From positions 1,650,386 to 1,714,385 of the forward strand of contig CAWIIN010000002.1 of assembly GCA_963836285.1 (NCBI GenBank): 64,000 nt of DNA. The letters are read 5' to 3'. Below are positions 30,437 through 32,514 of the stretch, one piece after another (within the stretch, counting starts at the first letter, position 1; each line of letters opens with the position of its first letter). The notes under the pieces were generated by a model, which saw nothing but the letters and a program-made list of their open reading frames with translations, was not told the DNA's origin and did not search any database. Origin of the DNA: an uncultured Acidobacteriota bacterium. Lineage in GTDB: Bacteria; Acidobacteriota; Thermoanaerobaculia; UBA5066. The position numbers and the translations under genes are program-made.

Positions 30437-31492
30437 TCAGTTCCCTCCCGCCGCAAGAAGGGAAAGAGACGCCCGTTGTCCGAGGTCGGACGAGGCGTAG
30501 ACGAGAGCGGGCCCCCGGGCCGCGTCCAGGCTCGCGAGTCCCGCGAGGAGCGCGCCCGCGGCGGCTCCGGTGTCGCCGTAGCAGTCGGCCGGGTGGTTCA
30601 TCACGTGGGGTTCCGCGAACGCGTCGCGCGAGCGGAGGAGGGCGACACCCCATTCCTTCGCCCAGTGGCTCTCGCCGTTCATGGACGACCAGACGGAGAC
30701 GAAGGGTCGCGGCGGCGGCGCGGATGCGACGAGGGACTGGATCGTGGCGGCGAGACCCTCGCCCTTGTACGTCTCCTTGCTCCCGAGGTGGCCCTTCTCG
30801 AAGCCCTCGACCGCGTCGGACAGGAGCGCCAGGCTCGTCAGGCCTGCCGCGGAGGCAGCGCGCGGGCTCGCGAGGAGAAGGAAAGCAGCGCCCTCGCCAG
30901 GGATGAAGCCGTCCAGATGGGCGCCGGTCTTCACGCGCTTCTCGAGGTCGAGCGTCCCGAGCGTGTAGAGGTCGACGTAGGTGTCGATCCCCCCTGCGAG
31001 GGCGAACGACGCGCCGCCACGCACGAGCGCAGCCGCGCGGCCCACGGCGGAAAGTCCGCCGGCCCGCCCGCTCGTGACCGTCGAGCTGGCCGCGAGGTCG
31101 AAGACGCCCTTCGCCTGCTTCTCGAGGAGCTTCAGCAGCCGTCCCGCGTCGAGAGGACGCTGTCTCTCGGGCTCCGGCAGCGCGAGGACGAGCGGCGGCC
31201 TTGCGGCAAGGCGGGGGGTGCCGACGCATTCCGTCAGCGCCCTCGCCCCGAGCCGGAGGAGGCGGGCGTCCCGGACGGTGAGCCCCGGTGTCTTGGCGAT
31301 CCCGGGCGAGAGCTCGGGAAGCCCCGCGTCCGGGACGGACGCGACGGTGAAGGGCTCGAAGCGGCGGTCCAGCCAGTCGATTCGTGCGAAGCGCATCGTC
31401 GCCGACCGGATCGAGGCCGCCGTCTCGGCGGTCGAGAGGCCCACAGCCGTGACCATTCCCACCCGCGCGACGACGACGTCGGTGGCGGCCAC
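30437..31492 (-). CDS. Thiolase-fold beta-ketoacyl-synthase-like protein lacking catalytic Cys/His (probably inactive)
   Basis: KS-like blocks (DGFIPGEGAAFLLL ~ DGFVMGEGAGVLVLE; GDTGAAAGALLAGLA ~ GHLLGAAGAVEA), but Ser/Thr at the nucleophile position (SSTVTSGRAGG) and no His-His pair. GTG start at 31492, 9 nt after the DUF2169 stop. Confidence 0.55.
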   Translation of the reverse strand: MAATDVVVARVGMVTAVGLSTAETAASIRSATMRFARIDWLDRRFEPFTVASVPDAGLPELSPGIAKTPGLTVRDARLLRLGARALTECVGTPRLAARPPLVLALPEPERQRPLDAGRLLKLLEKQAKGVFDLAASSTVTSGRAGGLSAVGRAAALVRGGASFALAGGIDTYVDLYTLGTLDLEKRVKTGAHLDGFIPGEGAAFLLLASPRAASAAGLTSLALLSDAVEGFEKGHLGSKETYKGEGLAATIQSLVASAPPPRPFVSVWSSMNGESHWAKEWGVALLRSRDAFAEPHVMNHPADCYGDTGAAAGALLAGLASLDAARGPALVYASSDLGQRASLSLLAAGGN

Positions 31493-31500
31493 CGGCTCTC

Positions 31501-32514
31501 CTACGCCGCCCTCGCGACGATCGGCTCGACCTCGCGCACCTTCAGGAGCCGCTTGTCGCAGGGGAGGGCGGCGCGCCAGACGAGGACAAGGCGCGACACG
31601 TCGGGGCGCAGGATGAGGGTGTCGAGATTTGCGGTCCTCCGCTCTTCGCCGGAGTCCAGACGGAAGACGAAGTCGACGCGCCGGGCCGGCAGGTTGAAGC
31701 GCAGGGCTCCCGATGGTGTCGCGCCGGCGACCTCGACGGGCTCGCCGCCCTTCAGGTAGCCCGGAACCTGCTGGTCTTCGGGAGCGATCTGAAGGAAGCG
31801 CGGGTCGAAATCGTCCGGCAGGTACGGGGCGCGGTTCTTCTGCCAGGCCTCGTCGTACGTCCCGGCGTACTTCGGCCGCGGCTTCCAGTGCGGCGCGATC
31901 GCGCCGAAACCGGCCGGCGCCGGGCGGTCGCCGGGCGACCCGATGAGCTTCGCGGGGTCCTCGAGGTTCGGCGGGACGACGTCCTCGAGCCTGCGGCCGC
32001 TCACACGGGACCGAAATCCCGTGCCGACGGGGTTGCGGTCCTCTCCGTCCACGCGCGGCGGTTCGCCCGGGTGCGTCTCGGTTCCGCCGAACGCGCGCTC
32101 CCACACGAGCGGCATCCTTTCGAACGGCTCCGGGGCCGACAGACGGCTCAGGATCCGGCCGCTCCATCGCCGATCCCCGAAGACGGCGACGCGCTTCTCG
32201 ATGGAGGCGAGGCGCAGGGAGACCTCGGCCTGGTGCGTCGGCCTTCCTCCCGGGCCGTACGCGTGCCCGAAAAGGAGGACGTCCGTTCCGGGTTTGACGA
32301 GCGACACGTCGCCGGGCTCGGCGATGCTCGTCGTCAGCGCATCGCCGTGGAATCGGTCGGCCATGACGATCGGGATCTGCTGCTGGGCTTCCTCGACGCG
32401 GGATGCGAGGGCGAACGTCCCCTTGACGACCGCGAAAATCGTCTCGACGCCGAGGGGATCGGGCGAGGAGTACAGAGCCGCCGGAAATCGGGTCGAATTC
32501 CTGATCTGAAGCAT
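31501..32514 (-). CDS. DUF2169 family protein (VgrG-associated adaptor-like)
   Basis: 337 aa immediately downstream of vgrG, in the position and at the size typical of DUF2169. Conserved YAGTYDEAW segment. Confidence 0.65.
   Translation of the reverse strand: MLQIRNSTRFPAALYSSPDPLGVETIFAVVKGTFALASRVEEAQQQIPIVMADRFHGDALTTSIAEPGDVSLVKPGTDVLLFGHAYGPGGRPTHQAEVSLRLASIEKRVAVFGDRRWSGRILSRLSAPEPFERMPLVWERAFGGTETHPGEPPRVDGEDRNPVGTGFRSRVSGRRLEDVVPPNLEDPAKLIGSPGDRPAPAGFGAIAPHWKPRPKYAGTYDEAWQKNRAPYLPDDFDPRFLQIAPEDQQVPGYLKGGEPVEVAGATPSGALRFNLPARRVDFVFRLDSGEERRTANLDTLILRPDVSRLVLVWRAALPCDKRLLKVREVEPIVARAA

Follow-up and report, generated by a model that had tools for sequence, protein, structure and literature searches.

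The subject of this report is a 351-residue ketosynthase (KS)-like protein encoded on the minus strand, at 30437..31492, of a 64-kb window, the whole stretch of DNA that we analysed, which has a guanine-plus-cytosine (GC) content of ~70% and comes from an Acidobacteriota-like, Thermoanaerobaculia-related genome. The protein is probably an inactive, trimmed KS-fold accessory subunit, a chaperone or adaptor, of a type VI secretion system (T6SS) spike-loading module of the kind described as Class II Tvp or synteny type A. Five lines of direct observation bear on this proposal: the fold, the loss of chemistry, a homologue-level family assignment, the structure of the operon, and a gene set that recurs across phyla. 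A KS fold with lost catalytic residues, encoded in an operon of vgrG, DUF2169 and DUF4150 toxin genes, makes a non-enzymatic T6SS accessory role the best reading of the gene.

What kind of protein is this, and what has become of its active site? Single-sequence searches gave marginal KS matches: in Pfam, the ketoacyl-synt model scored 19.8 bits, under its threshold of 20.8; Ketoacyl-synt_C gave no match to the protein, nor did any Pfam family beyond the weak ketoacyl-synt hit, and the best sequence match in the PDB was the actinorhodin chain-length factor (CLF; 1tqy_B, E 2.7e-4). A global hhalign profile alignment to FabF gave a probability of 98% (E 1.6e-12, 339 columns), and an AlphaFold2 model built from 34 homologues reached a predicted local distance difference test (pLDDT) score of 91.4 and a predicted template modelling score of 0.92. 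By profile and by model, then, the protein has the KS-type thiolase fold, and by alignment four catalytic residues have been lost. The FabF nucleophile C163 pairs with R143 in five independent alignments; FabF H303 pairs with N272 in both the MAFFT and the global hhalign alignments, and FabF K335 and H340 pair with A302 and D307, respectively, in global hhalign alone. Since the hidden Markov model (HMM) alignments to PDB sequences and the local hhalign alignments span only residues ~127-265, the His and Lys positions were taken from MAFFT and the forced global hhalign alignment, and these assignments rest on profile alignment, not on model coordinates. Working by eye, an earlier note on this DNA had described a thiolase-fold KS-like protein that had lost its Cys nucleophile and its His-His pair; the profile searches against KS families bear out the fold, none of the five alignments contains a catalytic Cys, and R143, N272 and D307 stand where the Cys and the two His residues would be.

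The same substitutions run through the family. Among 56 relatives extracted from genomes, position 143 is Arg in 44, His in 8, Glu in 2, Ser in 1 and Asp in 1, and is Cys in none; position 272 is Asn in 54 of the 56, position 302 is Ala in 53, and position 307 is Asp in 48, Glu in 5 and His in 3. The DGF-PGE motif common to true KS enzymes is kept in 54-56 of the 56, and the C-terminal NSFGFGG region of FabF has no conserved counterpart. Comparison with FabF and with the KS and CLF proteins of type II polyketide synthases (actinorhodin 1tqy, ishigamide 6kxd) gives a similar picture: an N-terminal GxGxxxxxG strand-turn, DGFxxGEG and DAxH-like motifs are held in common, whereas identity is only 15-22%, Arg, Asn, Ala and Asp stand in place of the enzymes' Cys, His, Lys and His, the protein is ~60 residues shorter than FabF, and its gene sits in a T6SS context without acyl carrier protein (ACP) or KS partner genes.

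Could the protein nevertheless be a CLF, or a normal condensing enzyme of fatty-acid or polyketide synthesis, whose gene lies beside T6SS genes by chance? The actinorhodin CLF is its best PDB sequence match, and relatives are annotated as 3-oxoacyl-ACP synthase I in some sources; however, there is neither a catalytic Cys nor, at the nucleophile position, the Gln of CLF and KSQ proteins (Arg is found instead), the operon contains no KS-alpha partner or ACP gene, the Pfam evidence for a ketoacyl synthase is sub-threshold or absent, and across phyla the T6SS spike genes stay near it in 50-56 of the 63 loci examined (see below). We regard this explanation as effectively refuted. A second possibility is that the protein has remained an enzyme, or binds a small molecule or acyl-ACP, through a remodelled site (R143, N272, E274, E280, H300, D303, D307) and serves, for example, in modification or lipidation of the spike or effector or in metabolic sensing. 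N272, E274, E280, H300, D303, D307 and R340, all polar and located at what is left of the active site, are indeed nearly invariant across phyla, and they would equally fit retained ligand binding or non-canonical catalysis; the retained DGF-PGE motif points the same way. All four residues of condensing chemistry are replaced, however, the former nucleophile position varies among R, H, E, S and D, which is unexpected for a catalytic residue, the chain is trimmed and lacks a conserved NSFGFGG counterpart, and the operon offers no ACP, acyltransferase or coenzyme A-ligase partner. A remodelled enzyme is therefore, in our judgement, very unlikely.

The family to which the protein belongs already has a name and a literature. 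Its best NCBIfam match is NF004798 (PRK06147.1), with residues 3-346 aligned to positions 3-342 of the 349-position profile (E 1e-44), and the next-best KS model in NCBIfam reaches only E 1.5e-5. The score of 153 bits falls short of the 342 bits set as the curated equivalog cut-off, as do those of ten diverse relatives, for all of which the PRK06147 model is likewise best (156-245 bits); such scores indicate homology to PRK06147 and to PA0098 of Pseudomonas aeruginosa, not certified equivalence, and the link to PA0098, VP1399 and PefC relies on the PRK06147 model, on common synteny and on the published papers. Clustered at 50% identity, the family comprises 1334 representatives at E <= 1e-30 and 4272 at E <= 1e-10, nearly all of them single-domain proteins of ~350 residues. 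To judge from profile match and gene order, the gene in the window is an ordinary further member of the published PRK06147/TvpD family.

Previous work has tied this family to the T6SS by gene neighbourhood. Among 407 PRK06147 homologues, 74.4% adjoin DUF2169, which in most of these cases lies first upstream, and a PAAR-type gene comes next downstream in 52%; some clusters hold PRK06147 and an effector with no other adaptor, and PRK06147 was put forward as a fourth class of T6SS adaptor (Liu et al. 2020, PMC7714669). The DUF2169 'synteny type A' is defined by a thiolase-like downstream gene (Sachar et al. 2025, PMC11883445); across 4505 genomes it accounts for 28% of the DUF2169 genes, and it includes DUF6484 and ARM-like proteins. 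In the same study, DUF2169 was shown to bind the PIPY domain, and delivery required DUF2169 (PMC11883445). Most recently, PA0098 was named TvpD and predicted to be a PAAR co-chaperone in Class II Tvp, the name given to the arrangement in an AlphaFold3 model of PA0096-PA0099 that has the PAAR domain of Tse7 lying in a groove made by PA0097 and PA0098, on a DUF6484 trimer (Monlezun et al. 2026, PMC13373197). In Proteus mirabilis, the effector-immunity pair pefDE does not suffice by itself; all of the pef operon is required (PMC5714391). Direct experiments in the work cited cover the DUF2169-PIPY interaction and, in the Class III Serratia system only, two-step assembly. The earlier note had held a KS-like protein beside DUF2169 to be unexpected; three of these papers (PMC7714669, PMC11883445, PMC13373197) had already joined the two. 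Its suggestion that a KS fold serves here as a non-enzymatic T6SS adaptor or chaperone is our own best reading and agrees with the literature, and it is only the surprise attached to the suggestion that has to be given up.

The operon itself consists of eight minus-strand genes in series, separated by gaps of 4-30 nucleotides (nt) as calculated from the coordinates, in the order vgrG1, tvpA (DUF2169), tvpD (KS-like), PIPY, AHH toxin, imm11, tvpC and TIGR02270. Its features, beginning with the gene under study, are as follows (aa, amino acids).

30437..31492, minus strand: KS-like pseudoenzyme, PRK06147/TvpD-family T6SS accessory protein, 351 aa; catalytic positions R143, N272, A302, D307.
31501..32514, minus strand: DUF2169 protein (TvpA-type PIPY/PAAR-like chaperone), 337 aa; Pfam PF09937, E 2.3e-95, full domain; also called in an independent assembly.
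32531..34689, minus strand: vgrG1 spike gene; Pfam Phage_GPD, Gp5_trimer_C, Phage_base_V; frame broken at a C6 run, 34267..34272.
30046..30432, minus strand: standalone DUF4150/Tox-PAAR-like (PIPY) spike-tip protein, 128 aa, with C-terminus GDPLFHNKKNIMG; Pfam PF13665, E 1.3e-39.
29160..30041, minus strand: separate AHH-nuclease toxin, 293 aa, with N-terminal tag MTDFGELV...DCYFC; Pfam AHH, E 4.9e-8.
28576..29151, minus strand: Imm11-family immunity protein, 191 aa; Pfam Imm11, E 4e-11; also called in an independent assembly.
28108..28545, minus strand: DUF6484-type TvpC-like protein, 145 aa; hhalign to the DUF6484 family; C-terminus matches VgrG1.
26850..28088, minus strand: TIGR02270-family HEAT/ARM-like repeat protein, 412 aa, whose gene closes the operon; NCBIfam TIGR02270, E 6.3e-41.

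The KS-like open reading frame (ORF) opens with GTG at 31492, with a GGAGAG ribosome-binding site 5 nt before it and the DUF2169 stop codon, at 31501, 8 nt before it; it is thus directly downstream of a single-domain DUF2169 gene, and the earlier note had placed it next to DUF2169 with the same length of 351 aa. The PIPY gene follows 4 nt past the KS-like stop codon, and vgrG1 ends 16 nt ahead of the DUF2169 start. In an independent short-read assembly, the identical 351-aa protein is encoded between genes called just as in the window. What had been described as a 'DUF4150-AHH toxin' neighbour does contain both of those domains, but they are encoded by two genes, the PIPY gene and the toxin gene. 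The TIGR02270 protein scores 140.7 bits against a subfamily cut-off of 206.8, with a weak Pfam HEAT_2 match besides.

The window as a whole holds a main T6SS cluster with TssA, TssC, two Hcp, TssF, TssG, ClpV, TssK, a TssM-like protein and two vgrG genes. The second VgrG (35983..38691, minus strand) carries a C-terminal Peptidase_M91 effector domain, and a 181-aa PAAR protein is encoded between the two vgrG genes (34751..35296, minus strand). Divergent from the effector operon, on the plus strand at 23997..25889, lies a 630-aa ORF with a VipA (TssB)-like region and a VipB (TssC) N-terminal domain, which looks like a sheath-protein fusion or paralogue. GC content falls to 0.61 across 29001..30000, where the AHH toxin and PIPY genes lie, as compared with 0.67-0.75 in the flanking sequence; this local drop fits an exchangeable toxin cassette.

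How widely is the gene set kept? We scanned one genome per species and obtained 63 loci, with neighbours identified by HMMs built from the window proteins. The loci come from about seven phyla (Acidobacteriota, Gemmatimonadota, Planctomycetota, Verrucomicrobiota, Desulfobacterota, Nitrospirota-like, Gammaproteobacteria, Myxococcota), and the closest are in Thermoanaerobaculia metagenome-assembled genomes, at 72-80% identity. Genes found near the KS-like gene were the following; because contig ends cut several loci, the counts are minima.

DUF4150: 56 of 63 loci.
DUF2169: 50 of 63 loci.
vgrG: 50 of 63 loci.
TIGR02270 protein: 50 of 63 loci.
Homologue of the 145-aa TvpC-like protein: 44 of 63 loci.

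The 145-aa protein deserves a word of its own. A direct Pfam search of it returned nothing but a weak DUF3540 match (E 0.045); as a family, its homologues align to Pfam-positive DUF6484 proteins with an hhalign probability of 99.85% (E 1.2e-30), and its C-terminus gives an end-to-end alignment to the tip at the C-terminal end of VgrG1 (E 4e-7). By these alignments the protein matches the published picture of Class II TvpC, in which an OB fold is joined to a very short β-prism as a mimic of VgrG; its own N-terminal part is OB-like, and a short segment at its C-terminus imitates the VgrG tip.

The window system lines up with the TvpD/synteny type A systems in the P. aeruginosa vgrG1b cluster, the P. 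mirabilis pef operon and Vibrio parahaemolyticus VP1399: the protein has the same full-length PRK06147 homology in a single domain of ~350 residues, its gene occupies the same position directly downstream of DUF2169 and upstream of DUF4150/PIPY, and the cluster partners (vgrG, a DUF6484-type TvpC and a HEAT/ARM-like protein) are the same. There are also differences. The host is Acidobacteriota-like with ~70% GC, and the family score is below the equivalog cut-off; the TvpC and HEAT genes come after the immunity gene and not, as in the P. aeruginosa arrangement, directly after vgrG; and the PIPY protein is standalone with a separate, tagged toxin, whereas the published Class II examples are PIPY-toxin fusions (PMC13373197).

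From this literature, we infer how the module would work. The eight tightly packed genes would be co-expressed; TvpA and the KS-like protein would together cradle the small PIPY cone on a TvpC trimer that mimics the VgrG tip, giving a TvpA-TvpD-PIPY-TvpC pre-complex; and the PIPY cone, with its toxin attached, would then be handed over to the tip of VgrG1, with the accessory proteins staying behind in the producer cell. To this scheme we add an inference of our own: in the clade with standalone PIPY proteins, the KS-like protein probably also contacts the toxin, by way of an N-terminal tag, and the TIGR02270 HEAT protein.

Other adaptors and pseudoenzymes of the T6SS invite comparison. Tla3 (DUF2875; PDB 8yz3), the adaptor that serves the lipase Tle3 on VgrG2b in P. 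aeruginosa, is a much weaker structural match to the window protein than the KS enzymes are, and its partners, the Tle3 cargo and the C-terminal domain of VgrG2b, are different ones. TsmK (AsaB, A1S_1301; the Acinetobacter 'pseudo-ketoacyl synthase') comes closer, as it too is a KS-fold pseudoenzyme that has lost its catalytic residues, has been co-opted by the T6SS and is required for T6SS function (PMC10564176). Might the window protein, then, have a structural job in stabilising the membrane complex of the T6SS, and not one in loading the spike or effector? The main T6SS core cluster does lie in the same window. TsmK, however, acts on the TssM/TssL membrane complex at loci without TssJ, largely in Acinetobacter, to which ~70% of its homologues are reportedly restricted, whereas the window gene lies in a vgrG-effector island and not among membrane-complex genes, and its relatives travel with effectors, including in modules far from T6SS core genes. 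We consider a TsmK-like role highly improbable; the two proteins are set apart here by genomic context and the published description (PMC10564176).

The separation of PIPY protein and toxin, in which the window departs from the published Class II examples, is a recurrent arrangement. About 40 loci in addition to the window encode a standalone PIPY protein of ~128 aa with the nearly invariant C-terminus GDPLFHNKKNIMG; we rejected the idea that the DUF4150/AHH split is an artefact, as the standalone PIPY gene is also present in the independent assembly and in these loci. The toxins that accompany such proteins begin with a tag, M-T-x-[IVFLM]-G-E-x-[VI], after which, usually at a distance of 10-20 residues, there is often (D/E)-C-x-F-(C); the AHH toxin of the window begins MTDFGELVNVEILIDRHDEDCYFC. 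A strict regular expression for the tag had 22 matches in 8655 translated segments, and 20 of the 22 are at the start of the gene directly after a PIPY or KS-like gene. A tag HMM recovered the motif in the window and in 26 loci, and further loci have looser variants; the tagged toxins belong to the window, to loci among L001-L045 and to L066. Past the tag, the toxins are unrelated, with AHH, Rhs/DUF6531, Tle1-like lipase and unassigned types among them.

A variant of the PIPY protein was also seen. In loci of Sorangium and Holophagae type (L047, L050-L054, L056, L057, L059), the protein has a C-terminal extension of ~20 aa that ends ...W(G/A)(V/P)xKIEV, and in six extended-PIPY loci (L050, L053, L056, L057 and L059 read directly; L047 not legible) the next gene product has another conserved N-terminus, M-x-(I/T)-IKQYVNLP.

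Three further arrangements involve the tag or the KS-like protein. First, where the gene order is altered (L012, L019, L036), the tagged toxin comes after the KS-like gene. Second, five gammaproteobacterial loci (L031, L033, L037, L040, L042) are orphan modules, in which a KS-like gene and a tagged toxin of Rhs, AHH-like or lipase-like type stand among housekeeping genes, with a MoxR ATPase, an L,D-transpeptidase and an HDOD protein as neighbours. Third, the KS-like and TIGR02270-like proteins occur as fusions, in opposite domain orders, in P0263 (L066 7001..9391) and P0226 (L067 519..3113); because each fusion is found on one contig only, this evidence is weak. P0263 belongs to an Hcp-VgrG-DUF6484-DUF2169-PIPY cluster, and after it comes a 36-aa ORF starting MSELGESV, a putative tag-only remnant. 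In the papers cited here, we found no description of a standalone PIPY clade, of the toxin tag or of KS-TIGR02270 fusions.

Taken together, the standalone PIPY proteins, the tag, the orphan modules and the HEAT fusions point to a possible role for the KS-like protein in reading the tag, in concert with the HEAT protein. Which, then, is its primary partner, the PIPY cone or the cargo toxin? One answer is that it is an effector-tag receptor, whose main partner is the toxin; it would recognise the tag and dock the toxin, possibly together with the TIGR02270 protein, on the PIPY/VgrG tip. Such a role is partly compatible with that of a spike-loading accessory subunit and would refine it. The position of the strict matches argues in its favour, as do the tag HMM hits on otherwise unrelated toxins, the reordered loci in which the tagged toxin tracks the KS-like gene, the orphan pairs, the tag-only remnant after a KS-like fusion gene, and the published clusters of PRK06147 and effector without another adaptor (PMC7714669). 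All of this support is genomic, however; PIPY could bind the tag instead, given that the effector comes after PIPY in most loci, and the 'orphan' genomes may encode a PIPY protein elsewhere. Additionally, the systems of P. aeruginosa, P. mirabilis and similar bacteria fuse PIPY to the toxin, so that no recognition in trans is needed there. We take the toxin to be a candidate for the primary partner, but less likely so than not. The more specific proposal, that, in a large clade that takes in the window and members of several phyla, the KS-like pseudoenzyme, probably with the TIGR02270 HEAT protein, would be the tag receptor that couples unrelated toxins to the PIPY/VgrG tip, we advance from these sequence patterns as a tentative and still doubtful idea.

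Returning to the spike-loading accessory subunit that we prefer, a number of points weigh against it. The family score falls short of the equivalog cut-off, and the conserved polar residues of the former active site leave a place for binding or catalysis, as described above. The TvpD complex of P. aeruginosa is itself a prediction, with an interface predicted template modelling score of 0.75 (PMC13373197), and the literature holds no direct experiment on any PRK06147/TvpD protein. The five orphan loci lack DUF2169, PIPY and VgrG in their sequenced flanks (up to 8 kb per side, but only ~1 kb downstream in three of them); PIPY co-chaperoning with DUF2169 therefore cannot be the sole role of the KS-like protein, and we reject an exclusive pairing with DUF2169 on the same grounds. 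Finally, vgrG1 is frameshifted in the window: frame analysis places its N-terminal ~142 codons, from a GTG start at 34689, in another frame. The orthologues in L001, L004, L016 and L027 and the paralogue vgrG2 have intact frames, and the break is at a C6 run; for these reasons, the frameshift is probably a single-base, homopolymer assembly error and not the mark of a pseudogene, and we rejected it as true biology.

Taken by itself, this one gene is of small consequence; its family is nevertheless large and biochemically uncharacterised. The finding adds one more PRK06147/TvpD member, in an under-studied phylum, and corrects the misleading '3-oxoacyl-ACP synthase' annotations. If the tag proposal is true, the tag would be a new motif for effector recognition by the T6SS, comparable to MIX and FIX, that could be used for mining new T6SS toxins, the pseudo-ketosynthase would have a defined job, and the minimal mobile unit would consist of a KS-like gene and a tagged toxin. 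The tag, the orphan modules and the HEAT fusions offer testable handles on the binding partners of this pseudoenzyme.

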